A stretch of DNA of 64,000 nucleotides from Leucoraja ocellata (Eukaryota): assembly GCA_036785375.1 (NCBI GenBank), contig JAWMAR010000231.1:2666001-2730000 (forward strand). Direction: 5' to 3'. The number at the start of each line of letters is the position of its first letter. Positions within the stretch are counted from its first letter, which is position 1. The notes beneath the pieces were generated by a model, which was not told the DNA's origin, searched no databases, and saw only the letters and a list, made by a program, of their open reading frames with translations. The position numbers and the translations under genes are program-made. Below are positions 1,765 to 63,896 of the stretch, one piece after another.

Positions 1765-4700
1765 CTGTGAAAAGTCATGGAATTCAATAATAGTTCATCT
1801 TGTAAAATTCCTGCACTTAGTACTGTAAAAAAAAAAGCTTTCTCACTTCAATCACTGGTATCAATATCAGTGTCCTCTCATCCATATTCAAAATTAACTA
1901 ACCGAACGTTCTGGTAATTTTGATTCATTTGAGGAACAAGATCTTGATTGCCCACTGCCATCCAAGTACGCTTGTAAGAAAATGGGAATTTATGGTAACC
2001 CAAATACCATCTCTGAAAATCACCTATTAATCCAGCATTATAAGAAAGGGGTGGATAGTTAACCAAAGTGCCCAGCCACTCAGTTTGAGCTATGCTTCCT
2101 GATAAATACAAAGTGCTAGTGGAACTCCACGGGTCAGGCAGCATCGGGGGAGGGGATGAACAGACATCATTTCCCGGTTGGGACCCTTCTTCAGACTGAT
2201 TCATAATAAAATAAAATAATAAATATGATAACGGTTAATTATACAGTAATTTCTTATATCACAAATAAAGGGGTAATGTAAGAATTCATTCTTTTCTTTA
2301 AAATAACAAATCCTGCAGCATTACCAGACCATGCAATATCTTATGGCTATGCTAAAATAGAAACCAGCTACATCACAAACCACTTGCAACAAGCCTTTCT
2401 ATGTTACAGGTAAAGATATTGTACATACATGCGCACTACGTTGCTGGATGTCGGGAATGAAGAGCACAGGCTGGGTGGCATGATCGTCAATGGATTTAAA
2501 GACAGTGGCTTCCATCTGCTTGTGGTTGGGGATCATGGGTATCTTTGAGTCGTGGACTGAAATTAGAAATTACAACATGAGACGATGAGAACAGATTATA
2601 CAATGATGGCTAGTGTTAGCCGGGAATCATGTAAAATTGTAACGCGCAGAAGACACTTAGAGTAACCAATACAATATCTCCTGGAACATTCCTGGCTTTG
2701 TAACTGTTGCATTTGTCTACTCACATGCATTGAGATGGGAACCACCATCGCTGGATTTGGACTTTTTACGGGATTGCTTGCGTTCCTCATCACGTATCTT
2801 CCGTTCTGCACCCTGTTCATCAGGAATCAGGCATGGGGAAAGGAAAGACATTTTACTCATCTTACAGCCATTTCCAATCATTTTCTGCTGTGTTAAAGTT
2901 GGAAAGGACATTGAGCAGCCACCGCACCAACATGGCGTTATTGTTGCTTATTTATTCTGCTCCTTTGATGTTTACCAAATTTATTCTGTGCAAAATATTC
3001 TGTGTAAAACACTTTAGTTTACAAAGCACCATGATGGCTTCACAATATCTAAACACAGTTTATAGGGATTGTAATTGCAGGTTTTGTACAAATGTTATGA
3101 AGTCCTGCCACTGGCAGATATTACAAGGGCCGATGTGTGGTGTTAGGCCGTTAAAAGATACAAAATAAAATGTTTTAGTTGAAATGTTTTAGTTAAAATG
3201 ACATTAGTTTGGAGGATGTGGAATCGGTATGGGTAGAGCTGCACAACACTAAGGGGCAGAAAACGCTGGTGGGTGTTGTGTACAGGCCACCTAACAGTAG
3301 TAGTGAAGTTGGAGATGGTATCAAACAGGAAATTAGAAATGCGTGCGACAAAGGCAAAACGGTTATAATGGGTGACTTCAATCTACATATAGATTGGGTG
3401 AATCAAATTGGCAGGGGTGCTGAGGAAGAGGATTTCTTGGAATGTATGCGGGATAGTTATCTAAATCAACATGTAGAGGAACCAACGAGAGAGCAGGCTA
3501 TTTTAGACTGGGTATTGAGTAATGAGGAAGGGTTAGTTAGCAATCTTGTTGTACGTGCCCCCTTGGGCAAGAGTGACCATAATATGGTTGAGTTCTTCAT
3601 TAGGATGGAGAGTGACATTGTTAATTCAGAAACAATGGTTCTGAACTTAAAGAAAGGTAACTTTGAGGGTATGAGACGTGAATTGGCCAAGATTGACTGG
3701 CAATTAATTCTAAAAGGGTTGACGGTGGATATGCAATGGAAGACATTTAAAGACTGCATGGATGAACTACAAAAATTGTTCATCCCAGTTTGGCAAAAGA
3801 ATAAATCAGGGAAGGTAGTACATCCATGGATAACAAGGGAAATCAGGGATAGTATCAAAGCGAAGGATGATGCGTACAAATTAGCCAGAAAAAGCAGCAT
3901 ACCGGAGGACTGGGAGAAATTCAAAGACCAGCAGAGGAGGACAAAGGGCTTAATTAGGAAAGGAAAAATAGATTATGAAAGAAAACTGGCAGGGAACATA
4001 AAAACTGACTGCAAAAGTTTTTATAGATATGTGAAAAGAAAGAGATTAGTTAAAACAAATGTAGGTCCCTTGCAGTCAGAAACAGGGGAGTTGATCATGG
4101 GGAACAAGGATATGGCGGACCAATTGAATAACTACTTTGGTTCCGTCTTCACTAAGGAAGACATAAATAATTTGCCGGAAATAGCAGGGGACCGCGGGTC
4201 AAAGGAGTTGGAGGAATTGAGTGAAATCCAGGTTAGCCGGGAAGTGGTGTTGGGTAAATTGAATGGATTAAAGGCCAATAAATCCCGAGGGCCAGATAGG
4301 CTGCATCCCAGAGTACTTAAGGAAGTAGCTCCAGAAATAGTGGATGCATTAGTAATAATCTTTCAAAACTCTTTAGATTCTGGAGTAGTTCCTGAAGATT
4401 GGCGGGTAGCAAACGTAACCCCACTTTTTAAGAAGGGAGGGAGAGAGAAAATGGGGAATTACAGACCAGTTAGTCTAACATCGGTAGTGGGGAAACTGCT
4501 AGAGTCAGTTATTAAAGATGGGATAGCAGCACATTTGGAAAGTGGTGAAATCATTGGACAAAGTCAGCATGGATTTACGAAAGGTAAATCATGTCTGACG
4601 AATCTTATAGAATTTTTCGAGGATGTAACTAGTAGCGTGGATAGGGGAGAACCAGTGGATGTGGTGTATCTGGACTTCCAGAAGGCTTTCGACAAGGTCC

Positions 4701-7700
4701 CACATAAGAAATTAGTATACAAACTTAAAGCACAAGGCATTGGGGGTTCAGTATTGATGTGGATAGAGAACTGGCTGGCAAACAGGAAGCAAAGAGTAGG
4801 AGTAAACGGGTCCTTTTCACAATGGCAGGCAGTGACTAGTGGGGTACCCCAAGGCTCAGTACTGGGACCCCAGCTATTTACAATATATATTAATGATCTG
4901 GATGAGGGAATTGAAGGCAATATCTCCAAGTTTGCGGATGACACTAAGCTGGGGGGGCAGTGTTAGCTGTGAGGAGGATGCTAGGAGACTGCAGGGTGAC
5001 TTGGATAGGCTGGGTGAGTGGGCAAATGTTTGGCAGATGCAGTATAATGTGGATAAATGTGAGGTTATCCATTTTGGTGGCAAAAACAGGAAAGCAGACT
5101 ATTATCTAAATGGTGGCCGATTGGGAAAGGGGGAGATGCAGCGAGACCTGGGTGTCATGGTACACCAGTCATTGAAGGTAGGCATGCAGGTGCAGCAGGC
5201 AGTAAAGAAAGCGAATGGTATGTTAGCTTTCATTGCAAAAGGATTTGAGTATAGGAGCAGAGAGGTTCTACTGCAGTTGTACAGGGTCTTGGTGAGACCA
5301 AGATACCTTGGTAAAATTGTTACGGAGGCAGGCGCGGGCACACCGCGACGCCCTGTGTCTCCCTTTCAAGGGAGATGCTAAAAATGCATTTCGTTGTCTC
5401 TGTACTGTACACTGACAATGACAATAAATTGAATCATTTCATTTTTTCATTTTTTTCACCACACCTGGAGTATTGCGTACAGTTTTGGTCTCCAAATCTG
5501 AGGAAGGACATTATTGCCATAGAGGGAGTGCAGAGACGGTTCACCAGACTGATTCCTGGGATGTCAGGACTGTCTTATGAAGAAAGACTGGATAGTCTTG
5601 GTTTATACTCTCTAGAATTTAGAAGATTGAGAGGGGATCTTATAGAAACTTACAAAATTCTTAAGGGGTTGGACAGGCTAGATGCAGGAAGATTGTTCCC
5701 GATGTTAGGGAAGTCCAGGACAAGGGGTCACAGCTTAAGGATAAAGGGGAAATCCTTTAAAACCGAGATGAGAAGAACTTTTTTCACGCAGAGAGTGGTG
5801 AATCTCTGGAACTCTCTGCCACAGAGGGTAGTTGAGGCCACTTCATTGGCTATATTTAAGAGGGAGTTAGATGTGGCCCTTGTGGCTAAGGGGATCAGGG
5901 GGTATGGAGAGAAGGCAGGTACGGGATACTGAGTTGGATGATCAGCCATGATCATATTGAATGGCGGTGCAGGCTCGAAGGGCCGAATGGCCTACTCCTG
6001 CACCTAATTTCTATGTTTCTATGTCTCCTTTCCTTGGTCCATTAGTCCCAGAGAGAAGAGGAGCTTGGAAGTAACCCCGAGGCTGAACATCACATGTAAT
6101 CATCTCAAGCACAAATCATTAAACATTGGAGGAAGCAATACGCCATGAACAATATAATGAACTATTGTTTAAGAAAGAACTGCAGATGTTGGTAAAATCG
6201 AAGGTAGACACAAAATGCTGGAGAAACTTAGCGGGTGAGGCAGCATTTATGGAGAGCAGTCTGAAGAAGGGTCTCGACCTAAAACTTCGCCAATTCCTTC
6301 TCTTCATAGATGCTGCCTCACCCGCTGAGTTTCTCCAGCATTTTGTGTCTACCTTCAATATAATTAACTAATTGTACACAAGAAATAAAACAGAAGTGGA
6401 CCATACACTCCTTCCAGTTTGCTCAGTCTTTCAATAACATTAGGGCTGAATCTGTTGCGTACATTCACTTTTCTACCTGACACTTTTGCTGTTCTATTCA
6501 TTTCAGAAATATATTCAGCAACTGAACATCCATGGCCCTCTGGTAGTGAATTCCAGAAATTCACAATAACACATAAAAAAAACTTCCTCATTTCATCCCT
6601 GAATAACCCCTTATCCCTACACTGTATTCCCGACTTTGGGCTTTCCAACCAAAATAAATGGTTAGGCCTACACCCTGTGACACCCCTCTCAATGGGATCA
6701 CCTCTAGGTCTTATAAAGTGCAGTGAGAATAGGCCAAGCGCTCCCTATACACTTTTCAGCCCCCTCAACCAAAAACTCATTCTTGGGGTCAGTGCAACAT
6801 AAGTTTACAAGGCCAGTACATCCTTCTTCCAATATGTTGACCAAAGTGGCACACAGAGGTTTTGCCAAAGCCCTGTACAAAACAACAAGGTTTTTGTACA
6901 TTAATACCAATAAGGTTGCAAATTGCCTTTCAATTACTCGTTTTACCTGCATACTTATTTTCTACATTTTCCAAATCCACACACCATTCGTCCTGTAGAT
7001 CAAAGCTCATCGTTTTTTTTAAATTGTTTTTATTTACAAATTACACCCCAGAATGTTTTCTTATACTGAATTTGCTGTGCCACCTACTGGACCACTTGCT
7101 GGATGTCTAAGTCCTGGTGCCAAGTTCCAGTCCTCTCCACAGCTCACTTGCCCACTTTGTATCCTCAGCAAACTTGAACGCATCATCAAAGTCACTCATA
7201 TGTGAAGTGCTGAGGACTCGCGCTAATCTCTCTGGCACCCTACCACTGACAGTCTGCCAACACAAACAAGAGATTCATTCTTGCTCTTGCTGGTTAAAGG
7301 AACTCCTCCGTGCACTGATATGTCATCCCCAATCACATGGACCCTTGTTTAACCCAATGCCATTTGATGCAGTTCCCTGTCAACCACCTTTTGAAAATTT
7401 GGATTTACTGCGTTCACTGGCTGTCCTTTATCTGCTCTGCAAGCAATATTATTGGAAAAAAATCACATTAAAACATACTAGACATGGTTTAGCTTTCACA
7501 ATATCATGCCTACTCTATCCAATCATAAGTTTTGATTTTCCTAGTGTCCTATCACTGTCTCCCTTTCATGATGGATTCCAACATTTCTCCACAAGCTGAC
7601 GACAGGCTAACTGGTCTATTGATTCTTGTCTCTCCTGTCTTAAATGGTGTTGACGTATTTGCAACACTTCCAATCTGTTGAGACTATTTCTGAATCTAAA

Positions 7701-10700
7701 GAACTTTGAACCATCACTAATATATGCACCTTGTTCAGAATCTCTTTGATGGGGTTCCAGTCCACATACGTTTGTCCAATACTCCCTCCTTAAGATATAA
7801 ATACTCCCTCGTTAAGATGCTACAATCTTCTATTATTAGTACAGAGCTCGCTGCAACTGAGCACTGTATGCAAATTGAACGGTCAATATGCAGTCAAATG
7901 GTAATAGCAGACTAAAAGGAAAAAGTTAGGTTTTTATTCCAACAACGTACCTTGTCACAGAACACTTTAATCTGGCAGTGTGCCCTGTGGACAGGCTTGT
8001 TGCTTCGAGTGTTGTAGCTGTAAGTATCGATCTGTATGTTCAGTGGTAGCCCTTTGACCCCTTTCTGAGAAGAGAAATCTGTGCTGAGACAGTTGACTGC
8101 GATGAAAATCTGAAATGGAAAGCAGGAATCTTAAGTTTAGCAAGTTAGCTATAAAGTGACAAAGCAAATACTTATACATTTAATGAATACAGTACATTTT
8201 GGCTTGTATTTAGCTTTAATTCCATAATGTAAGAGACAGACACACATTTTGTAAAGTCCTATTTCTAATACAGTCCTTCACAAGTAGCAACGAGTGAAGA
8301 TTGTGGTTGTGATTTTACAGCCATGCACATCATCAATATATCAATATCAATATCAACCTTTATTGTCATCTTGCAAGCAACAGTTGTACAGTGCAAAATG
8401 AAAAGACGTTTCCCAGTGAATAGCGGAGCATCGCACATGAAATTTAAAACACTTCACACATAATAACACTAAAAAAACAATCCAGTCCCTGATGGAACAG
8501 TATAAATAGTTAAAAGCAGGTAAAAAACACAATGTTAAAATACAGTAAACCAATCATAAAAAATGTCCGGGGCCGCTGATTTGAGTGGCCAGTGCCAGTT
8601 ATTAAAGTGTCCGTGCCAGCCGCAGAGTCAAAGGACTTGGAGTCCTTTGGAGTCAGAGTCATCCGTGTACCATGAGCATTGCATGGGACACTTGGGATCA
8701 AGGATGACCTACATGCACTCCAGTTCTCTGTGTTTCTGAGGTGGTTGATGAGGATAAAGTGGGGTCTATAGACTTGTCTACAGGTGGGGCAGAGGGCTGC
8801 CTGAAGCAGGCCGAGTGGACAGGTAATTCGGGAGACGTTGTGCTCCTTCCGCTATCTCTGATGAGCTTCCATGTGCCCTCGACACGAGGTTCTCAGCACC
8901 GCCCCAAATTTTCCTTTTCTACTTCGAACAGACATGGGCCAGGTATTCCCAAGATCAGTGGGGACTGCACTTCTTAAGGAAGGCTTTCTCTGTCTGCCTG
9001 GTAATCCCTACCCATGACAGTGCTCAGATGGAGCGACTGTGTCAGGATGCTGACACTGCACAGGTGATTCACACATCTGTCCAGCTGACGGTGGGGAGGT
9101 TGGAGAAGACCCTGGTCAACTCATCATTGAAGGATTTTGTGGAGATAATATTCATGTTGCCTCTCCAGTGCCTTGAGATGCCTGCTCTGGATAGTCCATA
9201 ACTCAGAAACACACAAGGCAGGGATCACTGCTACCCAGTAGACCATGAGCTTTGGGTCAGGTTCATGGTTTTGACCTTCAAACATCCTTTTCCTCGGTCA
9301 AACTAGGGTTCAAAGTTATGCTTTACAAAATGTGAATGAACCTAGATCAATATGTCAATGGGTGACTTTACACTGTGAAGATTCAACAACTGTATCGATC
9401 TGGCCCCACAACAAGTAAGACTGAAATATATCATGAAGGAAGGCAAAGTTTCATTGACTAAAAAACTCCATTTAGTGGGACAGAGTTATGGAGGGTGCAA
9501 TAGATGTGGAATTTTTGTTCAACATTTGCTACAGAGTCATCTCCTACACATATTAAAATTGCTGACATGCCATGACAGAAATCCTGTCATTGAGGGAAAA
9601 TCGTTTGAAAAATAATTAGAATAATTATGGAAAGTGTTATTACAACCACCGCTACTTTGCCAGCAGGTGCAACTTGTAGCTACTAAAAGCCTGGCTCACT
9701 TCACTTCACTGAAAGTTTTACATTTCAAATCTTAAAAACATTTAGATTTATGGATTATTTCCTTAGCCTCGGAATATCCCAAACCACATCACAGTCAATG
9801 AATTACTTTTAATATGTTACCAAAGTGACTATTAAAGCAGATAAGACAGCAAGTTAGTCACGCTAATGATAAAAATAAATTATTGTTAAAGGGACTGTCC
9901 CACTTGGGTGACCTAATTGGCGAGTTTAGAAGAGTTTAAAAAAATGACATGTTGAAGACCTCCTTCGACTATGTAGAAGACCTGTTTTGACCTCCTTCAA
10001 CTATGTTGAAGACTAGCTTCAACTAGCTACCACTAACTTCTGGAAAATTGGACACCGAATAGTGGAGAGTGCAGACGACCTCCTTCGATCTCCTTTGACC
10101 TTCCTTCAACTATGATGGACTATCTATGACTACCTTCGACTACCTTCAATTACCTACAACTAACATGCCGACCTGACCTACTACGACCTACTACTACGAC
10201 CTACTACTAAACCTACTAGTAAAAAAAGTATTGATTTTTGCTATGGCAACCTTTTTTTTTACTCCAGGCATTTTCTAACATATTGAAAAAAACGACGCGA
10301 CCTAGCCGAGGCCTCAAGTGCGCAGAGACCACTCTCGAGCATGAAGGAGAGTTACGAAGATCTCCTACGACGTTGTGTCGACCATGCTGCGAGTACGAGT
10401 CGAGGGCAAACTCGCCAGAACTCGCGGATTAGGTCGCCCAAGTGGGACAGGCCCTTAAGCATTGGTTGTTCAAGTAATGCCAGTAACCTGTGGTGGGCTC
10501 ATCCTTCTTCCAATTTTAAGAATTTCTTCCTTCCCCAATTATAATTTCAAATGAGAGATTATCTTCAACTATTGGTGAGTGGTGTTAATAATGCAGCATT
10601 CTCTCCTGGCATTGAAATGACGGTGCAGATTATTTGATTAAAATGTGATGGTAATCATGAACCTTCCGACTTTCTGACTTAGAAAATGACAAAATTGGAC

Positions 10701-13700
10701 ACACTTGTGGCAAGAACAAAACATAACACCCTTCTACCAAACGCAAAGATTTCTGCTTGTCCGTCAGTTATCCCCATCTCAGGAAATCAATCCGACATTT
10801 TCACAGAGATCAACTCCAGCTTCCCTTAATCAATAGGAACAGATTTAGGAATACCTTCCCACTATGGGTGGTGTGGGAAAACCTTTGAGTATGACCAGAA
10901 CATGTATAACGATACAGTTGCCTATTTTAGGGCAGATGTGGTTCAGAAATGCTGAAAAAGTAACATAAAATGGAAGGGAAAACAAGCCAACAATCTATCT
11001 GCTTCCAATGTTACCATTTCAGCTGTTAAACTTAGGCTGGCGTACAAACTGAAAGCACCAATAAGATTTTTTTTTTTTAAAGCCAATGAAAATAAAACTA
11101 TGTGCTAAAAATCTGAAATAAAAATAGAAAATCTCAGCAGGTCGGGCAGCATCTGTCAAAAGAAAAGCAGTCTATGATTTAGGATAGCGACCATTCATCA
11201 GAATAGTTCTAACAAAGGATCACAGAATGCTGGCCTTTTCTCTTTCCACAGATGCTGCCCGACATGCTGTGTTTTTACAGCATTTTCTGTTAAAAAACAA
11301 AAAGGCTTTACTTTCAATATATTTAGAATAAATAGACAATAGGTGCAGGAGTAGGCCATTTGGCCCTTCGAGCCAGTATCACCATTTACTGTGATCATGG
11401 CTGATCATCCACAATCAGTACCCCGTTCCTGCCTTCTCCCCATATCCCTTGGATGATCAGCCATGATCATATTGAATGGCGGTGCAGGCTCGAAGGGCCG
11501 AATAGCCTACGCCTGCACCTAATTTCTATGTTTCTATGACTCCGCTTTCTTTGAGAGCGAAATCTAACTCTCCCTTTAAAGCATCCAGAGAATTGGCCTC
11601 CCCTGCCTTCTGAGGCAGAGAATTCCACAGATTCACAACTCGCTGTGAGAAAAAGTTTGTCCTCATCTCTGTTCTAAATGGCCTACCCCTTATTCTTAAA
11701 CTGTGGCCCCTGGTTCTGGACTCCCCCAACATCGGGAACACATTTCCTGCCTCTAGCGTGTCCAATCCCTTAATAATCTTATAGGTTTCAATAAGATCCT
11801 CTCTCATCCTCCTAAATTCCAGTGTATATAAGCCCAGTCGCTCCATTCTTTCAACTTATAACAGTCCCGCCATCCTGGAATTAACTTCGTGAACCTATGA
11901 TGGCAAGAATGTCATTCCTCAAATTTGGAGACCAAAACTGCACACGATAGTCCAGGTGTGGTCTCACTAGGGCCGTGTACAACTGTAGGAGGACCTCTTT
12001 GCTCCTATACTCAACTCCTCTTGTTGTGAAGGCCAACATGCCATTAGCTTTCTTCACTGCCTGCTATACCTGCATGCTTACTTTCAGTAAAAACTAAATT
12101 TTGTTAGCCCTTGCTGTCTCCTCCCCTTCCTTAGCCCTCGAGCTGTCTCCTCCCATCCCCCAGCCCTCGGGCTCCTCCTCCTCCTTTTTCCTTCCTTCTC
12201 CCCGCCATCCCCTATCAGTCTGAAGAAGGGCTTCGGCCCGAAACGTTACCTATTTCCTTCGCTCCATAGATGCTGCTGCACCCGCTGAGTTTCTCCTGCA
12301 TTTTTGTGTACCTGCTTACTTTCAGTAACTGATGAACAAGGACACCCAGATCCCGTTGTACTTCCCCTTTTCCTAACATGACACCATTCAGATAATAATC
12401 TGCCTTTCTGTTCTTGCCACCAAAGTGGATAACCTCACATTTATCCACACTAAACTGCATCTACCATGCATTTGCCCACTCACCCAACCTGTCCAAGTCA
12501 CCCTGCATCCTCATAGCATCCTCCTCACAGTTCACACTGTCACCCAGCTTTGTGACATCTGCAAATTTGCTAATATTACTCTTAACCCCTTCATCTAAAT
12601 CATTAATGTATATTGTAAATAGCTGCGGTCCCAGTACCGAGCCTGGCGGTACCCCACTAGTCACTGCCTACCATTCTGTAAGGGATCTGTTAATCCCTAC
12701 TCTTTGTTTCCTGTCGGCCAACCAATTTTCCATCCATGTCAGTACCTTACCCCCAATACCATGTGCTCTAATTTTGCCCACTAATCTCCTATGTGGGGCC
12801 AATCGATCCAAAGGATCCAAAGAAATCCAAAGGATTTCTGAAAGTCCAGGTACACTACATCCACTGGCTCTCCCTTGTCCATTTTTCTAGTTACATCCTC
12901 AAATAATTCCAGAAGATTAGTCAAGCATGATTTCCCCTTCGTAAATCCATGCTAACTCGGACCGATCCTGTTGTCCAAATGTGCCGCTATTTAATCTTTT
13001 GTAACTGACTCCAGCATCTTCCCCATCACCGATGTCAGGCTAACTGGTCTATAATTCCCTGTTTTCTCTCTCCCTCCTTTCCTAAAAAGTGGGATAACAT
13101 TAGCTACCCTCCAACCCACAGGAAATGATCCTGAATCTGTAGAACATTGGAAAATTATCACCAATGCGTCCACAATTTCTAGAGCCACTTCCTGAAGTAC
13201 CTTGGGATGCAGACCATCAGACCCTGGGGATTTATCAGTCTTCAGTCCCATCTGTCTACCCAGCACCATTTCCTGCCTAATGTAGATTTCCTTCAGTTCC
13301 TCCATCACCCTAGATCCTCGGGCCACTTGTACATCTGAGAGATTGTTTGTGTCTTCCCTAGTGACGACAGATCCAAAGTACCTGTTCAACTCGTCTGCCA
13401 TTTCCTTGTTCTCAATAATAAATTCACCTGTTTCTATCTTCAAGGGACCCATATTTGGCAACTATTGTTTTCCTCTTCACAGACCTAAAGAAGCTTTTAC
13501 TATCCTCCTTTATATTCTTGGCTAGCTTACCTTCGTCCCTCATCTTTTCTCCCCGTATTGCCTTTTTAGTTATTTTCTGTTGCTCTTTAAACGTTTCCCA
13601 AATCCTCTGGTTTGCCGCTCATCTTTGCTATGTTATACTTCTTCTCTTTTATTTTTTATACTGTCCTTGACTTCCCTTGTCAGCCACGGTCACCTCTTAA

Positions 13701-40700: not shown

Positions 40701-42256
40701 TCATCATATTGTCCAGGACACTGACTAACATGCCCAAGAGTCCACCTTTCTCAGGCTTTAAGTGCCATTTTGAAACCCATTCGACAGCCAATGGTCTGCA
40801 CACAGCATTTCTAATTAGATTCTCTCTTCTGCAAAAAGAGATTCCTAAAATAATATACAAATTAAAAAACGGTAATTTGCCCATTAAACCTTGGCACAGT
40901 CTGTATATAATCCTTCTCTCCAGCTACAAGACAAAGTTCTATATAACACATGGTATTGTTGGCTGCATACATTAGATAATGTCCCTAAATCACCATCGTA
41001 ATAGTTAAGGCATGACTGAAATTATTGATATATTTTAAAAACAAATATTGTTAATACATGCGTCTATTCATCTCCCATCACACATATATTATTTCAAGTA
41101 TTTACCTCGTTCGATCAAATTGATATTCCTCTGCATCTAAAGCGGGCATTCGAATGTGAAGATCAGTAGGAAAACCAAACACATGCTGATGAAACAAAAC
41201 AATGAATTTGTGTTTCCATCAGAATTTAAAAGTAGATTGTATTCCATACACAATAAAAACAAATTATCTATTTTTGCAAAATAGATTTCATTACATTATT
41301 AATAGTGTTTTCAGTAGCATTTTAACTAGCTCAAGTTTGGCTTTAAGCCAGAAATAAGGTACTGATGGACAAATCCAAAAAGCCACTTCAACCACTGAAA
41401 GTGCATTAAGTCTCACTCACTACATCATGTAGTGGTCGTAAAATATTATAGGTGGCTATTCCGCAAGTACCTATTTTCAGATGCATCAATGTTCATATTT
41501 AATTATTTCTTGGACAGTAAAGATCATGTGATGCAATTTGAAGAAAATTGGTAGTTCTCCCATCAATATCCTTCTCACCACCAAAATTGATTTGGCTGTT
41601 TTATGTCTGAAGGGTCTCGACCTGAAACATTACCCATTCCTTCTCTTCAGAGATGCTGCCTGTCCCGCTGAGATACTCCAGCTTTTTGTGTATCTTTTGT
41701 GTATCTTTGGCTGTTTTATAACTATGTTGGGTTTTTTTAGAGACTATAGTTGTTGCTTTTGAACATGTTATAGAACAGCAATTGCACTTTAAAGTATTTC
41801 AGTGCATTTGGAGAGCCTTATGTCCAATGTGAAGGGATACGCAGAATCTCATTGCACCTCCCAGTGGTGTAGCTCTGGTTTGTCTATAATTTCTGTTTAC
41901 CATTGACATCATCATATACCTGTAACGATAACATTCTTACATATTCCGGTTGACATTTTTCCCGTCGAGGCCAGGATCATCTTACCTGAACATTTCATCC
42001 TTTATTTATTGACTTATTACAGATTATTGGAAATCGTCAAAAGACTCAGTGCCGTCTCACACACAGAATCTTCCATGTGCTTCCAGTGACGTCACCCCCC
42101 CAGGTTATTCATAGAAACATAGAAATTAGATGCAGTAGGCCATTCGGCCCTTCGAGCCTGCACCGCCTTTCAATATGATCATGGCTGATCATCCAACTCA
42201 GTATCAAAACAGAAACCCAAGCTCCAAAAGGCACCAATCTCCCCTCTCCCTGTCCT

Positions 42257-42289
<33 letters not shown>

Positions 42290-51200: not shown

Positions 51201-54107
51201 CGTACTCCCCTTCTAACACGAGCGGGATGCATGGGAGTGAGCAGTCTTCAACCAGAAAAGCAAAATGGAGAGAAATGGTAAAATATTACAATTTTAAAAA
51301 GACAATGGAATAAAAAAGTCCAAAAGTAAAACTATGCTGGAAGTCGGAAATAACACAGGAAAAGTAGGACAGGCAAGAATCAACGGAGGGAAAATCCGTG
51401 AATGTTCATCAGGTTTACTCTGTTTTCCCTTGCCTGCTGACCATATTCTGTTTTATAACTGGGTAAAAATTGCATCAGGCCTTGTTGCCAGGTATGGATA
51501 ATCATTCATAAATTGTGTTCATCATTTTGTGGCACCGGAGTTCTCAGAAGTGCTGACTAGCCCTTCAAACTTGTTTAGATTGAGAAGAATAATCAATGGG
51601 GATGCAATTTACTGTCACAGGGAGCAAGTCATTTAAATCAATCAAATTAATATGAGCCATTCTCAATCCATTCAAACGTTTGAAAGAAATTAGAAAAACA
51701 TGTTTGTTGGAAAGAGTGCAGAAAATATGTACAGGGATGTTTCCAGGAATGTGGGCATAAGCTAAAGGAAGGTTGGGCGGGCTAAGACTTTAGTCTTTGG
51801 AATACAGGAGGCTGAGAGATGATAGTATAGAGGTGTATAAAATCATGAGGGGAATTGATAGTATCAATGCACAGCGTTTCAGACAGAGCAGGAGAACCAA
51901 GGTTTAAGACATAGGAGTCAAGAGCAGATTCCCTGGTGTAAATGTTGGACAATCTCAGTGAAGGACTCCAGCTACACTGGTGGTAGATCACTGACAGGAG
52001 ATCACCAGCAGAGTTCAGCCAACAACTTATAGGTTGGTGCATTCATGAAGGATTCCCCAACTGGGCAGAGGTTAAGAAAGTAAATGCTGTCAGTTTCATG
52101 TGAAATACTATAAGATCCTAGCTTTCATTGATGTGTGACATGGGAAGAGAGAACGTTATTGGTATATAAACACCTGTTCACCTGGTTTGGGCCAGGGGCA
52201 TGGACTTTGAAAAGGGGAAATGAAATGAAGTGGGACAAGCGTGCTTGCTAATCAGTTGCTCGTGCCTTCTGTTTCATTCAGGTCTTTGTGGATAGTTCTG
52301 AACAACCTGACAGGCAGGTAGAACTGACAGGCATGCATAACTCACTATATGAGTTCACTTGGGCAATTACACGAGACATAGAAACATTGAAAATTATGAA
52401 CAGTTTTGATAAACAAGCAAGGAGGGTTGAGGTTTGGGAGTTGCCATGAGCAGGAGAATGTTTTTTGTTATGGAAACTGAGGGGTTGGATATTTACTTCA
52501 AAAGGAAAGGCAAAAATCAGTATCTTAAGGAAATAGCAGAGCTATGGGAGTAAATATATTGATCATTCAAAAACCCGAGAGGCATAATGGGCTAAAAGAA
52601 GTTTCTTCTGCCATTTTGAACATATCATTCATCATAATACTTCTACCTTTTGTTGTGCTCAGAGTCCATATTAGAACTTTTCTCAGGTGGTATTGTCCTC
52701 TTCTCCCTGGGAACCTAAAGTTTAAAAGATGTTTCAATATTTTGTGAACAGCATTTTTAGAATAAATCATCCACAGGTGTTTTCTACGAATAGTTTCTGT
52801 ACAGTCAGCGAATAAACTCAGTCCTAGCTTGCACTTGCAGTTAAATTACGAGTGCATTTGAAAATTCCTTTAACCATTTCTAAGGTTACAGTTAAAATTA
52901 TTGCCCGGCAGTAGAGAATATTTAAAGGAAGTACAATTATATTATTTAAACAGAATTCTGATCTAATTCAACACTGCTGTCTTCATTTACATTCTGTGTC
53001 ATCTTCACCGAATATGTGATTCTGTTACATTCTGTTTGTAGTTTGTTTGGTTGTTTGTTTGTTTGTCTTTTTGCACAAAGTCCGCGAGCATTGCCACTTT
53101 TCATTTCACTGCTTTTCATTTCACTGCACATCTCGTATGTGTATGTGACAAATAAACTTGACTTGACTTGATGTACTCAGTTTAGTGTGGCTAAATTCCA
53201 ATGCACACTCCCAATTGAACAGTTCTTTAAACTGTCTGAATGGGAGCACAGTCACAAAGAGGAACTACAATATTAAGTTAATTGACAAAACTATGGAAAA
53301 TGGATTGGACCCAAACGAACAGAACTAAATACCAACTCAGTGGCAATCCAAAATTGGGTTCCTATGTATGGATGATTTAGTATCATGGGCAGGTATGTGG
53401 GTCCATTGCCTTCTGCACCCTATCGTAACCAAGGAAATCTGGAAAGGCATGCAGTGGTCATTTTCAGATTCAACTTGAGCTGCGGCACAACAAAGGACAC
53501 AACGAGGCCTTGTCAGCAATCTTGGAGCTAAACTAAGCAAAAAATATATATTTTTCAGACTATTTCTTCTGCTGTTGTTAGTTTTCAAAAACTAATTGAT
53601 AAATATCAAAGGCAGCGCACTCATTCAGAGGTCATTTGCAGTGGACAATGTAGATCAGATTAGATTTGTTTATTGTCATTCAGACCTTTCGGGCTGAACG
53701 AAATTTTGTTTCATCTGCAGTCATACATATAATAAAAAATGACAAAAACACACAATCAACACAAATTTAACATCCATATGAGTAACAAGTGTAATCGGCA
53801 AAGCCAGATCAAACTACAAACTGTCGCAGCCTTGGTGGATGATTTGAACATCACTCGACATTCAAACAGGTTGTTCCTTTCATTCAATATGGAGTATATT
53901 GGACCACCAAATGTGCATACCTTGTAATAATCGTAGAGTAAGCCCAGAGCGGCAGCACTATCATCATCTCCATTGATGCTCATCATGGCCTTAGTGGCAG
54001 CAGTCAAGGGGTTTTCCAGAAAGGATTTCCATGCTTCATCTTCACTGGTATAGGAACGCCGTTGGGGATAAAGTGGCTCATTCTGTAGCACTAAGACCGC
54101 TCTCTTA
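1727..54107 (-). CDS. GRHL1: Grainyhead-like protein 1 (CP2/Grainyhead transcription factor), partial multi-exon gene, exons 2-12: join(54107-53921,52714-52647,49987-49606,41185-41106,40566-40413,37578-37467,33197-33103,8109-7951,2812-2725,2556-2429,1764-1727)
   Basis: Eleven GT-AG-bounded exons splice into one open frame (1491 nt). Peptides match recalled vertebrate GRHL1, e.g. [88 protein letters not shown] and [18 protein letters not shown]. The N-terminal and RCIDI/NAISF residues favour GRHL1 over GRHL2/3. Confidence 0.96.
2092..2200 (-). mobile_element. Penelope-like terminal fragment with degenerate hammerhead motif
   Basis: Minus strand reads cagtCTGAAGAAGGGTCCCAACCGGGAAATGA...gatgctgcctgacc. 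Confidence 0.65.
2429..2556 (-). CDS. GRHL1: GRHL1 exon 11 (128 nt), [43 protein letters not shown]
   Basis: Acceptor atttcag|TC CAC; donor CAT|gtatgt; TQPVLFIPD motif. Confidence 0.93.
2725..2812 (-). CDS. GRHL1: GRHL1 exon 10 (88 nt), [29 protein letters not shown]
   Basis: Within ORF 2717..2911; acceptor gaacag|GGT GCA; donor GCA T|gtgagt; phase 0 to 1. Confidence 0.93.
3195..6025 (+). mobile_element. Young 5'-truncated CR1-clade LINE ORF2 (AP endonuclease C-half + reverse transcriptase), disrupted
   Basis: ORFs 3209..4966, 4839..5381 and 5375..5932 carry [29 protein letters not shown] and FADD motifs; frameshift at G7 run 4951-4957; insertion 5301-5457; (TTCTATGT)n tail. Confidence 0.95.
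5301..5457 (+). mobile_element. Short non-autonomous retroposon or LINE 3' end inserted into CR1 ORF2
   Basis: Interrupts GTGAGACCA/CACCTGGAG with acca duplicated (5297-5300, 5458-5461); ends ACAATAAATTGAA plus TCATTT-like tail. Confidence 0.8.
6170..6357. mobile_element. Fold-back Penelope-like terminal element with hammerhead-like motif in the loop
   Basis: Arms ~6200-6256 and ~6300-6357 are inverted repeats; loop contains CTGAAGAAGGGTCTCGACCTAAAAC. Confidence 0.8.
6385..7720 (-). mobile_element. Old degenerate CR1 LINE fragment
   Basis: Residual peptides VNFWNSLPE and [11 protein letters not shown]; patchy similarity to the young CR1 copies. Confidence 0.7.
7951..8109 (-). CDS. GRHL1: GRHL1 exon 9 (159 nt), [53 protein letters not shown]
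   Basis: Acceptor catttcag|ATT TTC; donor AAG|gtacgt; conserved DNA-binding-domain motif. Confidence 0.97.
8333..8660 (-). mobile_element. Retroposon 3' end with (GATATT)n tail (Rex/Babar-associated type)
   Basis: Minus strand ends GATGACAATAAAGG followed by TTGATA repeats. Confidence 0.55.
8690..9300 (-). mobile_element. RTE-clade LINE fragment
   Basis: Minus strand ~9160-9300 translates roughly to [35 protein letters not shown], like the RTE RT C-terminus (KLMVYRAAVIPALLYASETWT). Confidence 0.7.
9890..10455. mobile_element. PIF/Harbinger-like MITE (566 bp)
   Basis: ~37-bp TIRs AGGGACTGTCCCACTTGGGTGACCTAAT / ATTAGGTCGCCCAAGTGGGACAGGCCCT; TAA TSD (9887-9889, 10456-10458); internal GACCTCCTTCGACTA repeats. 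Confidence 0.85.
11120..11290. mobile_element. Degenerate fold-back Penelope-like terminal element
   Basis: CAGCAGGTCGGGCAGCATCTGT ... ACAGATGCTGCCCGACATGCTG inverted arms. Confidence 0.6.
11449..11537 (+). mobile_element. Very short CR1 3' end inserted in opposite orientation into the 3' end of another CR1
   Basis: TTGGATGATCAGCCATGATCATATTGAATGGCGGTGCAGG...TTCTATGTTTCTA interrupts catatccc/tgactccgc. Confidence 0.85.
12091..12312 (+). mobile_element. Penelope-like terminal fragment with intact minimal hammerhead core, inserted in CR1
   Basis: 16-bp direct repeat TGCTTACTTTCAGTAA at 12075-12090 and 12313-12328; CTGAAGAAGGGCTTCGGCCCGAAACGTT at 12220-12247. Confidence 0.85.
12214..12255 (+). 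ncRNA. Candidate minimal type I hammerhead ribozyme motif (PLE-associated)
   Basis: CUGAAGA-A, stem II GGGC(UUCG)GCCC, GAAA, palindromic ACGU stem III, GUU cleavage triplet; stem I is short. Confidence 0.6.
13700..14076. mobile_element. PIF/Harbinger-like MITE (377 bp, GC-rich) inserted in CR1
   Basis: TIRs AGGGCCTGTCCCA / TGGGACAGGCCCT; TTA/TCA TSD; host CR1 resumes colinearly. Confidence 0.85.
15226..16265. mobile_element. Non-autonomous DNA transposon, ~1040 bp, superfamily unresolved
   Basis: Imperfect TIRs TAAGTATGTTGCAAA / TTTGCAACATTGCTA; flanked by direct repeat CCTTTGG (15219-15225, 16266-16272); no long ORF. Confidence 0.75.
16472..16487 (-). promoter_or_regulatory. Candidate CTCF motif
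   Basis: Minus strand ACACTAGAGGGCACTG, one mismatch to the CCASYAGRKGGCRS core. Confidence 0.35.
16739..16901 (+). repeat. Degenerate minisatellite, 4-5 units of ~28-35 bp
   Basis: Units begin (GG)TGAGTTTA at 16739, 16774, 16807 and 16868 and end in CCC. Confidence 0.7.
18375..18470 (+). mobile_element. Penelope-like terminal fragment with hammerhead-like motif
   Basis: CTGAAGAAGGGTTTCGACCCAAAATGTC...GCTGAGTTACTCCAGCACTTTGTGT. Confidence 0.7.
18495..18528 (+). promoter_or_regulatory. Candidate strong CTCF site (core plus upstream motif)
   Basis: TGCAGGCAT-N6-TGGCCAGCAGGGGGCAGT matches the CTCF core and upstream-module spacing. Confidence 0.5.
18557..18735. mobile_element. Fold-back Penelope-like terminal element with hammerhead-like motif
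   Basis: Inverted copy of the terminus followed by CTGAAGTAGGGTCTCGACCCGAAACGTC (18638-18665). Confidence 0.75.
19575..20185 (+). mobile_element. HE1-like SINE 3' half interrupted by a minus-strand CR1 3' fragment (~19661-20068)
   Basis: CTCCCACATCCCAAAGATGTGCGGGTTTGTAGG...; CR1 tail; resumes GGTCGGCGTGGAGTCAGTGAGCCAAAGGGCCTGTTTCC...(AAACT)n. Confidence 0.75.
20474..20690 (-). mobile_element. Retroposon 3' end with (ACTTG)n tail, same family as 53050-53171
   Basis: Near-identical reverse complement of AGTCCGCGAGCATTGCCACTTT...GTGACAAATAAACTTGACTTGAC. Confidence 0.7.
25403..25570. mobile_element. Fold-back Penelope-like terminal element (interrupted by the following insertion)
   Basis: GGAAGGAACT..AGATGCTGG..GACACAAAATGCTGGAGT... 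with CCCATTCCTTCTCCCCAGAGATGCTG; resumes as GAGTTATCTCCA at ~26446. Confidence 0.65.
25575..26441 (+). mobile_element. ~870-bp GC/CpG-rich non-coding retroposon with (TGTAT)n tail
   Basis: Abrupt CpG-rich block; 3' module TTTTGCCTTCCATCACAGCGAGGAGG shared with 40117-40141; ends ATGACAACAAATAA(TTGTA)n. Confidence 0.7.
27268..27362 (-). mobile_element. Penelope-like terminal fragment, truncated within the hammerhead motif
   Basis: Same subfamily as 12214-12312 and 43741-43840. Confidence 0.75.
27685..28831 (-). mobile_element. 5'-truncated CR1 LINE (RT C-terminal part) with a 141-bp templated insertion at 28311-28451
   Basis: ORFs 28442..28831 (FADD), 28033..28275 and 27773..28045; (TTCTATGT)n tail. 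Confidence 0.93.
29005..29341. mobile_element. Two abutting CR1 3' fragments (+ 29005-29070, - 29071-29341)
   Basis: ORF 29122..29343 matches the CR1 ORF2 C-terminus. Confidence 0.8.
30275..30420. mobile_element. Fold-back Penelope-like terminal element
   Basis: GACACACAAAATGCTGGAGTAA ... TTACTCCAGCATTTTGTGTCTATCTTC inverted arms. Confidence 0.7.
30470..30870 (-). mobile_element. CR1 3' fragment
   Basis: ORF 30595..30879 ([12 protein letters not shown]); ATAGAAAC tail. Confidence 0.85.
31190..31335 (+). mobile_element. HE1-like SINE 3' fragment
   Basis: GCAGGTTAATTGGCTTCTGTAAATTGCCCCTAATG...GGTCAATGTGGACTGTTTCC. Confidence 0.6.
31396..31988 (+). mobile_element. 5'-truncated CR1 3' fragment (inverted relative to 27685-28310)
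   Basis: ORF 31660..31899; TTCTATGTTTCTA tail. Confidence 0.92.
32718..33037 (-). mobile_element. HE1-like tRNA-derived SINE, near full length
   Basis: Minus strand: A-box GTGG..CAGTGGTAGAG, B-box GGGTTCAATCCC, V-SINE-like core, HER1-like tail GGGCCTGTTTCCACG..(AAACT)n. Confidence 0.85.
33103..33197 (-). CDS. GRHL1: GRHL1 exon 8 (95 nt), [32 protein letters not shown]
   Basis: Acceptor ttccgcag|CT GAT TAC; donor AAG|gtagga; phase 1 to 0. Confidence 0.97.
35590..35845 (-). mobile_element. HER1/CR1-like LINE 3' fragment
   Basis: Similar to 55780-56070. Confidence 0.6.
36338..36670 (+). mobile_element. HE1-like SINE
   Basis: GCGGCACGGTGGTGCAGC...GGGCCGAAGGGCCTGTTACCACGCTGCATCTCTAAACTAAAC. 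Confidence 0.85.
37467..37578 (-). CDS. GRHL1: GRHL1 exon 7 (112 nt), [37 protein letters not shown]
   Basis: Within ORF 37387..37608; acceptor ttttcag|AGC; donor ATC G|gtataa. Confidence 0.97.
37815..38467 (-). mobile_element. 5'-truncated CR1 3' fragment
   Basis: ORF 37917..38429 ([13 protein letters not shown]...); ATAGAAAC tail. Confidence 0.92.
38500..38850 (-). mobile_element. Penelope-like element ORF N-terminal fragment, degenerate
   Basis: Frames give HFFCRL.., [20 protein letters not shown] and [14 protein letters not shown], like the PLE region upstream of the PADKG motif. Confidence 0.7.
39281..39515 (+). mobile_element. HE1-like SINE, 3'-truncated
   Basis: GGTGGCACAGCGGTAGAGTTGCTGCCTTACAGC...GGTTCAATCCC... 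Confidence 0.85.
39658..39710 (+). repeat. 27-bp tandem duplication containing TGAGTCA (AP-1 consensus) in each unit
   Basis: TGCACCTTGGAATAGYATGAGTCAAT x2. Confidence 0.8.
39980..40160 (-). mobile_element. Retroposon 3' end with (ATCCA)n tail; related copy at ~53652-53780
   Basis: GGATT repeats followed by CTTTATTGTCAT...CTGAACGAAATTTTGTT shared with 53670-53710. Confidence 0.6.
40413..40566 (-). CDS. GRHL1: GRHL1 exon 6 (154 nt), start of DNA-binding domain, [52 protein letters not shown]
   Basis: Acceptor ttataaag|T ACA; donor AGA|gtaagt; [10 protein letters not shown] Grainyhead motif. Confidence 0.96.
41106..41185 (-). CDS. GRHL1: GRHL1 exon 5 (80 nt), [26 protein letters not shown]
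   Basis: Acceptor ttcatcag|CAT GTG; donor ACG AG|gtaaat; resembles recalled human VFFPSDLSLRMPGMNSEDYVFD; phase 0 to 2. Confidence 0.88.
42110..42205 (-). mobile_element. Short CR1 3' end
   Basis: CATAGAAACATAGAAATTAG...GATCATCCAACTCAGTATC. Confidence 0.8.
42238..42494. repeat. (CT)n/C-rich tract, CpG-rich spacer and poly-G tract
   Basis: Pyrimidine run 42238-42335; G run 42460-42494. Confidence 0.8.
42672..42852. mobile_element. Fold-back Penelope-like terminal element with hammerhead-like motif at the apex
   Basis: Arms 42672-42722 and 42737-42787 inverted; minus strand CTGAAGAAGGGTCTCGACCTGAAATGTT. Confidence 0.8.
43130..43301. mobile_element. Fold-back Penelope-like terminal element, different subfamily
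   Basis: AAGCAAGCTGCTGGAGGAACTC... / ...GAGTTCCTCCAGCAGCTTGCTT. Confidence 0.7.
43744..43840 (-). mobile_element. Second PLE terminal fragment nested in a PLE
   Basis: 12-bp direct repeat GTAAAGGGGAGG at 43732-43743 and 43841-43852. Confidence 0.8.
43800..43840 (-). ncRNA. Candidate minimal type I hammerhead ribozyme motif, sense to GRHL1 pre-mRNA
   Basis: CUGAAGA-A-GGGU(UUCG)GCCC-GAAAC-GUC: intact core, canonical GUC triplet; stem I short. Confidence 0.6.
44290..44868 (+). mobile_element. 5'-truncated CR1 3' fragment
   Basis: ORF 44291..44734; CTATTGTCTATTG tail. Confidence 0.9.
45640..45925 (+). mobile_element. CR1 3' fragment, other subfamily
   Basis: GAGGGTAGTGAATCTGTGGAATTC...GGGAGAAGGCAGGAGAATGGGG...GGCCGAATGGCC. 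Confidence 0.75.
46916..47036. repeat. C/T-rich low-complexity tract (G-quadruplex potential on the minus strand)
   Basis: Runs of CCCCCT. Confidence 0.8.
49606..49987 (-). CDS. GRHL1: GRHL1 exon 4 (382 nt), [11 protein letters not shown]...[22 protein letters not shown]...[19 protein letters not shown]
   Basis: Within ORF 49564..50043; acceptor ttcaag|G AAC TCC; donor GAG|gtaatc; phase 2 to 0. Confidence 0.95.
50701..51000 (-). mobile_element. HE1-like SINE
   Basis: Reverse complement of the SINE head (GCACGGTGGCACAGCAGTAGA, GGGTTCAATCC), core and tail. Confidence 0.8.
52647..52714 (-). CDS. GRHL1: GRHL1 exon 3 (68 nt), [22 protein letters not shown]
   Basis: Acceptor ctttag|GTT CCC AGG; donor AAA AG|gtagaa; phase 0 to 2; resembles recalled human VPRERRSS...DHSKR. 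Confidence 0.9.
53050..53171 (+). mobile_element. Retroposon 3' end with (ACTTG)n tail
   Basis: Matches 20474-20560 in reverse; AATAAA before the tail. Confidence 0.7.
53921..54107 (-). CDS. GRHL1: GRHL1 exon 2 (187 nt), [62 protein letters not shown]
   Basis: Acceptor tttgcag|T AAG AGA; donor AAG|gtatgc; lies mostly within ORF 53756..54091. Confidence 0.97.
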
Positions 54108-54849
54108 CTGCAAAGGAGGCGAAGAAAAGTTGTGAGAGGCTATTTACCCTTTAAGAAAATAAAATCCCCATAAGAGTAAACAATTGAGTTTCGTGCCCCA
54201 AATAAATAAGTATTCAAGCAACGTTAAAAAAAAAAGCAAAACCTGTAGTTCCAGTGTTGTTTCAAAATGGGTAATTTGCACAAACAGGTTTAGCAACAAT
54301 AGTTTGTGACATAATTTCTGCACCATTGTGATTTTTAAAGTTTTGTCTTTACGTATACTGGCTTGCTCCCCAATCAGTCACACAAATGATTCAACCAGTA
54401 TATCAGATTTTAACATCGAAATAAAACTGCATGCAGCTTTGGACCTCCACATAGCAACAATTTTTTAGAAGCTGAAATAAAAATAGGAAATGTTGAGAAT
54501 ACTCAGCAGGTCAGATAGCATCTCTGTTGAGAACAAGAGTGAACATTTCGGATTAAAGACCTTTTATCATAAAGTCAAAAATCAAAAATGTTTTCACTTG
54601 CAGGAGCAGGAATGAATGCCTGTGATAGGGGTGGAGACCAAGATAAACTGAATGACATAGGTGGTGGTGGCGCTGGCAGAAAGAGAGAGTGAGGCTTTTA
54701 AAATCAGAGATGATTTGTTTGAAGGAGATATAAAAATAAAAAATGGAGAGAGCAAAAAAAGGTGGAAGAGAGAGAATTAATAAGTTTTGTTTAGAGATAT
54801 AGTGTGGAAACAGTCCATGCCGACCATCGAGAGAAAAGAGAAATAAACA

Positions 54850-56315: not shown

Positions 56316-56367
56316 ATCTACCTGATCTATTCCTCTCATGATCTTTCTGAATCAAACTGGGTAATTG

Positions 56368-57426: not shown

Positions 57427-57550
57427 TAGGAAGTAACTGCAGATGCTGGTTTAAACCAAAGACAGACACAAAAAGCTGGAGTAACTCAGCAGGTCAGGCA
57501 GCATCTCTGGAGAAAAGGAATATGTGACGCTTCAGGTCGAGACTCTTCTG
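57427..57550 (-). mobile_element. Penelope-like terminal fragment
   Basis: AACTGCAGATGCTGGTTTAAACC..GACACAAAAAGCTGGAGTAACTCAGC..GTGACGCTTCAGGTCGAGAC. Confidence 0.7.
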
Positions 57551-60290: not shown

Positions 60291-60297
60291 ATCTCTT

Positions 60298-63700: not shown

Positions 63701-63774
63701 CTAAAGTTCAAAAGACTGCAATAGCACTTGTGACTTCTTGAGGTTATAGAAGGCACAATATATAGGAGATACTA

Positions 63775-63896
63775 AGAAACTGCAGATGCTGGAATCTTGA
63801 GCAAAACAACACAGTGCTGGATAACTTTATAGGTCAGGCGACATTTTCGGGAGGGAAATGGACAGATGCTTTGGGTCAGGAGCCTTCCTCAGACTA
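63775..63896 (-). mobile_element. Degenerate Penelope-like terminal fragment
   Basis: GAAACTGCAGATGCTGGAATCTTGAGC...CCTTCCTCAGACT. Confidence 0.6.

Follow-up and report, generated by a model that had tools for sequence, protein, structure and literature searches.

The short repeats scattered through the window (the whole 64,000-nucleotide stretch of DNA analysed here) are quite probably end-pieces of the pseudo-LTRs (pLTRs) of Penelope-like elements (PLEs), likely Neptune, that carry a known hammerhead ribozyme, with most of the short copies arising by run-off reverse transcription of an uncut RNA over its initial 95-135 bases. Motif and carrier are both already known, and the finding as first written is an ordinary one. 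The copy ends point to an uncut template and to a start at the ribozyme edge, and with this the role of PLE hammerheads becomes directly testable. The scale within a single genome is also far beyond the counts of the 2014 survey by Cervera and De la Pena (PMC4209133): a pattern count finds well over 100,000 intact cores (107,549, against 0 for the reversed pattern), whereas the available portions of that survey give ~4,000 for coelacanth and ~9,000 for Xenopus, with other descriptors and older assemblies. Termini genome-wide number an estimated ~1.3-1.5 million, which would make some 130-200 Mb of stubs if each measures 100-135 bp.

That the termini are PLE pLTR ends with a minimal type I hammerhead, as the preliminary description had proposed, is borne out by a near-complete element, L055. 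This is a partial tandem (pLTR-ORF-pLTR) whose pLTRs, 1025 bp long and 99.3% identical, both carry the motif, at 6358 and 2385, each time ~120 nt past the endonuclease stop and ~137 nt ahead of the next ATG. The matches of its protein to RVT_1 (E 2e-6) and to GIY-YIG (E 1e-3) fall under the Pfam cut-offs, and in L055 and L052 we read KPADKGG (DKG), YIDD and LIYC..C..C..IYIGET, that is, a reverse transcriptase (RT) followed at the C-terminus by an endonuclease of the GIY-YIG type; the L055 linker ahead of the endonuclease, CGRRRCNTC (C-x4-C-x2-C), fits C-x2-5-C-x2-C. Judging from these residues the carrier is likely a Neptune-type PLE, Neptune being favoured over Nematis because the host is a vertebrate. 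The C-terminal EN+ PLEs of the Neptune clade, as presented in the accessible parts of Craig et al. 2021 (bioRxiv 10.1101/2021.04.23.441226), have the same RT, C-x2-5-C-x2-C linker and C-terminal GIY-YIG with CCHH, and they form the same partial tandems, with an adjoining inverted truncated copy and a one-sided tail; both Neptune and Poseidon are found in vertebrates according to bioRxiv 10.64898/2026.07.22.740005. Here L055 is the partial tandem, and L054 and L057 are inverted. In addition, 76 motifs lie within 400 nt past an endonuclease-end signature (loci L002-L070, some of which overlap), and the UTRs upstream of them differ strongly among loci. A frameshift common to the endonuclease of many long copies was considered and dropped, as the shifts fall at differing places and the query is itself shifted.

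The motif was compared through the majority sequences of five clean subfamilies. In all of them the CUGANGA and GAAA boxes with their NUH triplet are invariant, an unpaired base follows A9 and G10.1-C11.1 closes stem II, a closing G-C pair that also holds in 13 of 13 hand-picked copies. The two-base-pair stem I and the replacement of stem III by a palindromic ACGU, both described before, are confirmed, with the ACGT palindrome (15.2-16.2, without a monomeric helix III) present in all five majorities. The minimal hammerheads (min-HHRs) reported from metazoan PLE pLTRs, among them Xena, Poseidon and Neptune of fishes, have the same type I layout in the available portions of PMC4209133: the same boxes, the bulged base after A9, G10.1-C11.1 and a palindromic 15.2-16.2 without loop 3, occurrence in both pLTRs, mostly as solo copies from truncated PLEs, and weak activity as dimers. 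Against these, stem II is shorter here (4 bp, compared with 7-8 in Schistosoma and 6 in D. virilis), stem I has 2 bp, and the motif is far more uniform than among the min-HHRs of those portions. No shark or skate was found in those portions or in two supplement files of PMC4209133, and a search of the accessible literature returned no paper on the motif in cartilaginous fish, except for one chondrichthyan in bioRxiv 10.64898/2026.07.22.740005. Animal non-LTR retrozymes, as sketched in excerpts of that preprint and of PMC7229834, are likewise non-coding, pLTR-derived and equipped with a type I hammerhead, but they are tandem repeats with a ribozyme per unit, whereas the copies here are solo or head-to-head stubs that start ahead of the ribozyme rather than at its cut site. 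Viral contigs held 0 related loci; metagenome contigs held 30, most too short for a pLTR, one of them with a clear minimal hammerhead of uncertain membership in the matched element.

Across the five subfamilies, none of the 11 core positions varies, compared with 1 of 8 in stem II (a U-A to U.G change) and 3 of 4 in loop II. The excess conservation that had been anticipated for the core is partial: it holds against the 16 nt just past the cut site, of which 11 vary (p=3.5e-4), and is not significant against the downstream block, where 8 of 39 positions vary (p=0.17), so that part of the constraint could come from promoter function or protein binding. Once inserted, copies change at an approximately neutral rate, without clear selection; in 60 long copies anchored downstream, the core shows 52 changes against 66 expected and stem II 67 against 49. 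An estimate that had the core conserved in inserted copies too (5.4% vs 9.2%) was set aside because it was skewed by the way the copies were found. Nor was the covariation proposed for stem II confirmed as two-sided. The subfamilies are set apart by one-sided U-A to U.G changes only, in stems I and II, and the C-G form GGGC-TTCG-GCCC, with 179 genomic copies against 35,951 of its U.G parent (0.5%), is a rare point variant, rarer than the pair-breaking GGGC-CTCG-ACCC (773 against 21,383 of its parent, 3.6%). The 13 hand-picked rows contain three double changes, each in a single sequence, and 8 of 500 shuffles scored as high. The stem II "covariation" appears to be mostly point decay.

The comparison with Rfam suggested at the outset gave 14 matches up to E 10, none of them to a hammerhead family, a silence to be expected because the motif lacks helix III. 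The hammerhead is also predicted not to be the preferred fold. ViennaRNA favours other pairings: in the youngest subfamily the probability of stem II is close to 0, that of stem I does not exceed 0.01 in any construct, and the program favours the free dimer (-22 to -29 kcal/mol) over the hammerhead-like one (-13 kcal/mol). According to PMC6765202, dimer cleavage is the subject of a study by Lunse et al. from 2017. RNA was examined in three raw-read runs and one contig run, in which solo copies within host transcripts swamp the signal; within that limit, molecule starts or ends do not pile up. In RNA reads of a relative, depth is smooth across the cut site, without a break, and homology is lost at -2/-3, as in the genomic copies. 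The strand bias seen in single-cell RNA is consistent with oligo-dT priming at internal sites and was left out of the evidence.

In 207 copies anchored downstream, 41 of the 5' ends fall 0 to 5 nt before the core (590 at-risk positions, 0.069 per nt), compared with 63 at +5 to +40 (5933 positions, 0.011 per nt), a 7-fold excess (p=3e-17); around the cut site the same copies show no excess (9 in 875, 0.010). With 5' ends just before the core and none piled at the cut site, the template was likely an uncut RNA starting at TCAGT. The edge is spread over several bases, with peaks at -2 and -3 and another at -7, and the lone solo copy defined by an empty site starts at -6. Of 62,033 exact cores genome-wide, 49,858 come with GT, 39,686 with AGT and 28,477 with TCAGT. 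At the other end there are two peaks, ~65 and ~98 nt past the cut site and thus ~33 nt apart. Target duplications, 9-17 bp long where present, flank 9 of 71 short copies, compared with 0.2% of shuffled pairs. Among the L-numbered loci examined, no full-length copy starts at -3 without an upstream pLTR.

From these ends a pathway can be proposed. Transcription would start at the A of TCAGT, an initiator-like sequence, 3 nt before C3, so that stem I would be reduced to GU. The element protein would begin cDNA synthesis internally, from one or the other of two sites in the RNA, as in anole Poseidon, and when it uses those in the 5' leader it would come to the RNA end after ~100-135 nt. Selection would maintain the core in master elements, and its cleavage there is likely weak, by dimers formed through ACGU and with protein help, while inserted copies would be dead ends that decay, likely without cutting host RNA. 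A close precedent is the Anolis carolinensis Poseidon PAc (Frangieh et al. 2024, PMC11167929), for which the available portions of the paper describe a hammerhead at the same pLTR-ORF junction, two internal RT starts that give an optional 30-40-bp tail, an uncleaved template RNA and protein-assisted cleavage. In PAc the ORF opens within stem II and contains the RT starts, whereas here the ATG lies ~137 nt past the cut site and is preceded by both RT end sites, and the linker is that of Neptune/Nematis. Those portions map no transcription start to the ribozyme edge, and a search of the accessible literature returned no paper that places the start of a PLE at its ribozyme. More tentatively, the stubs may be a fossil map of the element's 5' end, in which Neptune starts 3 nt before the core, the ribozyme comes ahead of any other structure in a capped RNA and would be a protein-gated decapping switch that removes the first 31 nt, and leader-internal reverse transcription yields strong-stop-like cDNAs that outnumber full-length ones by orders of magnitude and give rise to short direct and inverted pLTRs; we consider this extended version somewhat less likely than not.

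The left edge might instead mark the place where the enzyme stopped or folded back, at an RNA structure bordering the core or at the near-palindrome TCAG-T-CTGA, on cDNAs begun in a downstream pLTR, with transcription starting elsewhere. An upstream inverted arm is present in 36 of 142 anchored copies, some of which turn exactly at TCAG-T-CTGA, such palindromes have been taken as self-priming (PMC3846280), and the scatter of 5' ends over several bases would suit this account as well. We nevertheless regard it as unlikely, since the edge lies 5' of stem II whereas a stalled enzyme would presumably stop 3' of it, since unrelated rather than inverted flanks are seen in most edge copies (70 of 106 non-long ones), and since ViennaRNA predicts no stable fold at the edge. 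Less plausible still is a splicing origin, in which CAG|T is a 3' splice site whose intron reaches to stem I, as it does in Penelope of Drosophila virilis, and the short copies derive from spliced RNA. Long copies do have a pyrimidine tract and CAG right ahead of the core, and PMC4209133 offers the precedent, but a spliced first exon was rejected because none upstream of AGT or GT is common to 70 flanks, and no CAG|T joint occurs among the best 15 of 89 joints.

The very high copy number and the presence of a distinct 97-bp unit flanked by a target duplication could also suggest an independent SINE- or retrozyme-like family, one that spreads by means of a self-cleaving RNA of its own and perhaps cuts introns of the host. 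This account is largely refuted, and we give it very little weight. Long and edge-starting copies occur together within each of the five clean subfamilies, so the short ones are by-products and no separate family; the several PLE subfamilies of the preliminary description are upheld by the majority sequences, while its short non-autonomous subfamilies are not. Moreover, there is no accumulation of 5' ends at the cut site, the inserted copies decay nearly neutrally as set out above, and in the window the copies are solo or head-to-head, with no tandem units running from cut site to cut site, hammerhead to hammerhead.

The gene in which these copies lie holds no special place. The host is identified by CP2 exons on the minus strand (family search) and a best PDB match to GRHL1 (E 1.4e-30); it spans 7951..54110, with exons at ~53920-54110, 40398-40568, 37465-37608, 33100-33333 and 7951-8115, that at ~53920 being presumably the GRHL N-terminus. 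A profile search finds 27 termini in the window at E<=1e-4 and 28 at 1e-3, the same density as the 230-259 per 600 kb in 60 random stretches. Given this and the neutral decay, the spread of motifs across GRHL1 is real without being special to it, and nothing suggests a function of the repeats for the gene.

All eight motifs listed initially are present at their positions and strands, the one given as ~42708 occupying 42710-42737, and a fuzzy search found 10 copies at <=7 mismatches, compared with 0 in each of five Markov-shuffled windows. Many cores are mutated, as claimed: the CUGANGA box is spanned by 12 of the 27 termini and kept by 9, both boxes are kept in 6, and the whole core with ACGU and a 4-bp stem II is found in only 2, at 12220-12247 (+) and 43807-43834 (-). 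Both are in young insertions absent from a duplicate locus on the same contig. The first, ~221 bp at 12091..12312 (+), runs from the endonuclease stop through the PLE 3' UTR, hammerhead and downstream block, is 85% identical to the L055 element end and has the 16-bp target duplication TGCTTACTTTCAGTAA at either side, 237 bp being missing from the duplicate locus; its core, antisense to GRHL1, has a GUU cut triplet and a private U-to-C change that gives a C-G pair in stem II. The second, at 43744..43840 (-), is a solo insertion that belongs to the TTCG/GCCC subfamily and measures 97 bp, made of ATCAGT, hammerhead and 63 nt. A target duplication of 12 bp borders it on the two sides (43732-43743, 43841-43852), and 109 bp are present in the window only; its core, CUGAAGA-A-GGGU(UUCG)GCCC-GAAAC-GUC, is sense to the GRHL1 pre-mRNA. 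It is nested in the 3' UTR, which it splits, of an older, 5'-truncated PLE 3' fragment at 43430..44065 (-) that comprises a GIY-YIG C-terminus, 3' UTR, hammerhead, downstream block and ~33-nt tail. The GIY-YIG C-terminus described for this region is confirmed (43884..44063, -, the last 60 codons, HFNSPSH...LGLLHC...NIDFSNFK stop; tblastn, 72% identity over 60 aa to the intact L055 endonuclease frame, E 1.8e-21), whereas the motif at 43806-43834 is not the terminus of that fragment; the native hammerhead lies at 43526..43553 (-), with A9 changed to C.

The remaining copies are more worn. At 18550..18732 (+) a short inverted 3' arm with a tail adjoins a direct terminus whose hammerhead, 18638-18665, has A9 changed to U, and at 18374..18466 (+) a short terminus begins at the core edge (18375-18402, G12 and C15.2 mutated). 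Head-to-head inverted pairs lie at 6166..6359, with a tail on one arm only (6261-6288, +, G12 and G16.2 mutated), and at 42671..42852 (42710-42737, -, from the GT before C3, C15.2 mutated). An old terminus at 2101..2200 (-) has an additional base and a broken cut triplet in its hammerhead (2167-2194), and a TTCG-subfamily terminus at 27267..27359 (-), truncated within the CUGA box, has a 9-bp target duplication. Decayed termini without a whole core, from the profile search and self-blast, form inverted pairs at 11127-11292, 25437-25571 and 43162-43302; others lie at 20758-20839, 21109-21190, 30310-30390, 33460-33541 and 41608-41695 on the plus strand and at 32086-32178, 35070-35143, 37753-37815, 46819-46901, 54483-54563, 57459-57549 and 63803-63895 on the minus strand.

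The window copies are minimal hammerheads of Penelope-like elements (PLEs) in a cartilaginous fish, and most of them are dead. The repeat landscape suggests that the host is a skate or ray. All eight motif copies named in the preliminary description were found in place; when up to seven mismatches to any of three natural seeds are allowed, ten copies turn up in the window and none in five Markov controls. A profile derived from seven natural copies detects 27 termini there, the truncated end-pieces of the PLE pseudo-LTR (pLTR). The CUGANGA box is spanned by 12 of these 27 and intact in nine; both boxes are intact in six and the whole core in two. Rfam scoring, proposed as a check on the motif, returned no hammerhead match. 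Exact counts over 3.44 Gb of the genome give 107,549 generic intact cores, and none for reversed control patterns, compared with about 4,000 motifs in coelacanth and 9,000 in Xenopus in one report (PMC4209133); a single 28-mer has 21,383 copies and the TTCG form 35,951. Sixty 10-kb stretches at round coordinates contain 230 to 259 termini, which scales to 1.3-1.5 million genome-wide, and because the window has the same density it is typical, not enriched. The host gene, first described as GRHL1, lies on the minus strand, has CP2 exons and is matched best by GRHL1, and there is no sign that the hammerhead copies have a role in it.

That PLE termini carry the motif is borne out by L055, a near-complete copy elsewhere in the genome. 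Using the GIY-YIG C-terminus encoded at 44063-43884 of the window, we searched the same genome (DNA query: 6,096 first-look candidates, 40 scored; protein query: 200,287, 116 scored) and examined 20 stretches around long frames, one being a duplicate of the locus itself. L055 is a partial tandem in which 1025-bp pLTRs of 99.3% identity, both containing the motif, surround a ~4-kb unit, and its frames hold the reverse transcriptase (RT) motifs DKG and YIDD, a C-x4-C-x2-C linker and GIY-YIG, an anatomy that agrees with that given for Neptune and Nematis (bioRxiv 10.1101/2021.04.23.441226). The motif lies ~120 nt past the endonuclease stop, and the next ATG is ~137 nt beyond the cut site. Another long copy, L052:2120-5121, sits within a satellite array of ~30-bp period that continues on both flanks. 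On a metagenome contig, L159:1615 (-) is a similarly laid-out minimal hammerhead whose stem II differs (GGCUAG/CUAGCC), with an AUAU palindrome and a stem I of 4 bp; a PLE-type RT match lies nearby, on the opposite strand. The window also contains decayed PLE coding fragments of more distant subfamilies on the minus strand (38575-38744, 55584-55796 and 56705-56782; one from the N-terminal part of the RT and two from GIY-YIG).

The same contig holds, at a distance of ~200 kb, an inverted duplicate that is 96-99% identical (C231:2870001-2950000); it covers the whole GRHL1 region (window 1-64000), differs in the presence or absence of repeats, and reflects either recent segmental duplication of GRHL1 or a second haplotype that was not purged. 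Paired identical CP2 scores likewise occur on contigs C379/C275 and C1294/C56. A CR1/L2-type LINE at 3197-5932 (+), with a 589-aa open frame containing endonuclease and RT domains, is missing in part (2935-5491) at the aligned position. Among the 27 termini, out of 28, that could be mapped to the duplicate, two are missing there, and these are the ones whose cores are intact. The insertion that holds the motif at 43807 is 97 bp long, has a 12-bp target duplication and lies in the 3' UTR of an older GIY-YIG fragment, so that the link once drawn between this motif and the endonuclease is one of nesting; the fragment's own motif is 43526-43553, which has lost A9. The second insertion measures 221 bp and its target duplication 16 bp. 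Direct repeats of 9-18 bp at both ends occur in nine of 71 short copies, one of the nine being an internal tandem, versus 0.2% of shuffled pairs. As a result of the nesting at 43526-43834 (-), the intact core is followed on the GRHL1 sense strand, 281 nt downstream, by a second motif that retains its GUC site; a cis heterodimer within the intron could in principle form, and has little weight in folding prediction.

Clustering 215 copies on sequence 3' of the cut site gave five clean subfamilies, a mixed class of 12 being excluded. Between the five majorities, variable positions number 0 of 11 in the core, one of eight in stem II (U-A to U.G), three of four in loop II and 11 of 16 past the cut; the cut-site base is C or U, and base 1.1 is A or G, either of which pairs with U2.1. 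Such a pattern is consistent with a hammerhead under constraint in the master elements. The contrast with the sequence past the cut is not unique to the core, because a block further downstream is almost as constrained (8 of 39 positions vary, p=0.17). Inserted copies decay about neutrally: among 60 long copies collected without using the core, protection is not clear (core, 52 changes versus 66 expected; stem II, 67 versus 49). Two-sided covariation of stem II did not hold up, the C-G form numbering 179 versus 35,951 parents and a pair-breaking form 773 versus 21,383. The active form has little weight in folding, as monomer or dimer, in keeping with two papers in which activity is reported as weak or as assisted by protein (PMC4209133, PMC11167929). 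In the youngest subfamily, TTCG/GCCC (e.g. 43807-43834), the inverted repeat GUUUCGG-C-CCGAAAC lets stem II pair with the GAAA box, an arrangement predicted to beat the hammerhead fold; the most recent lineage may have a less active ribozyme.

In 207 downstream-anchored copies, 5' ends are most frequent 2 and 3 nt before C3 (-2 and -3), and their rate is 0.069 per nt over 0 to -5 versus 0.011 over +5 to +40 (p=3e-17), 0.009 over -9 to -60 and 0.010 around the cut site, although older subfamilies absent from the reference set could create false ends at -5 to -8. Whole-genome counts agree: GT precedes 80% of exact cores, AGT 64% and TCAGT, common to all subfamilies, 46%. RNA reads from an organism with close relatives of the element break homology at -2/-3 as the genome copies do, with no pile-up of read starts or ends and smooth depth across the cut site (run X24, three bins: 1662/1639, 1574/1549, 1501/1500), but most of these reads derive from solo copies within host transcripts and have little bearing on the element's own RNA.

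We suggest that the element RNA would start at the A of TCAGT, and that the element protein would prime within the leader and run off the RNA 5' end, which on uncut RNA would yield stubs of 95-135 bp. Such a start would fit the initiator consensus, and would explain why stem I is limited to two pairs. An Inr-like TCACT has been described in a rotifer pLTR (PMC3846280), and D. virilis Penelope has an internal promoter (PMC2377424); our literature search found no paper on the start-site reading itself. As a rival, RT stalling or folding back at the core edge would make the same shared left edge, while a 3' splice site at CAG|T is poorly supported. So is an independent retrozyme-like family: each clean subfamily has both long and edge-starting copies, which argues that autonomous elements produce the stubs as by-products and that these are not the non-autonomous subfamilies originally supposed.

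Among 142 copies, 3' ends have two peaks, 60-74 and 90-104 nt beyond the cut site, corresponding to the optional tail of PLEs, which one study attributes to two internal RT starts (PMC11167929). Just before the first end site, the downstream block (e.g. L055:6270-6312 (-)) has GAG-UUN-CUC, whose loop base varies, enclosed by AUGCUG/CAGCAU, and the tail repeats CAGCAUCU; block and repeat are a candidate RT start signal. Past the cut site, at L055:6309-6330 (-) and in all subfamilies, a variable pyrimidine-rich stretch of 14-16 nt leads to an AG that never varies and precedes ATGCTG (CCATAG, CCAGAG, CCACAG); this arrangement resembles a 3' splice site and would be the second candidate for one.
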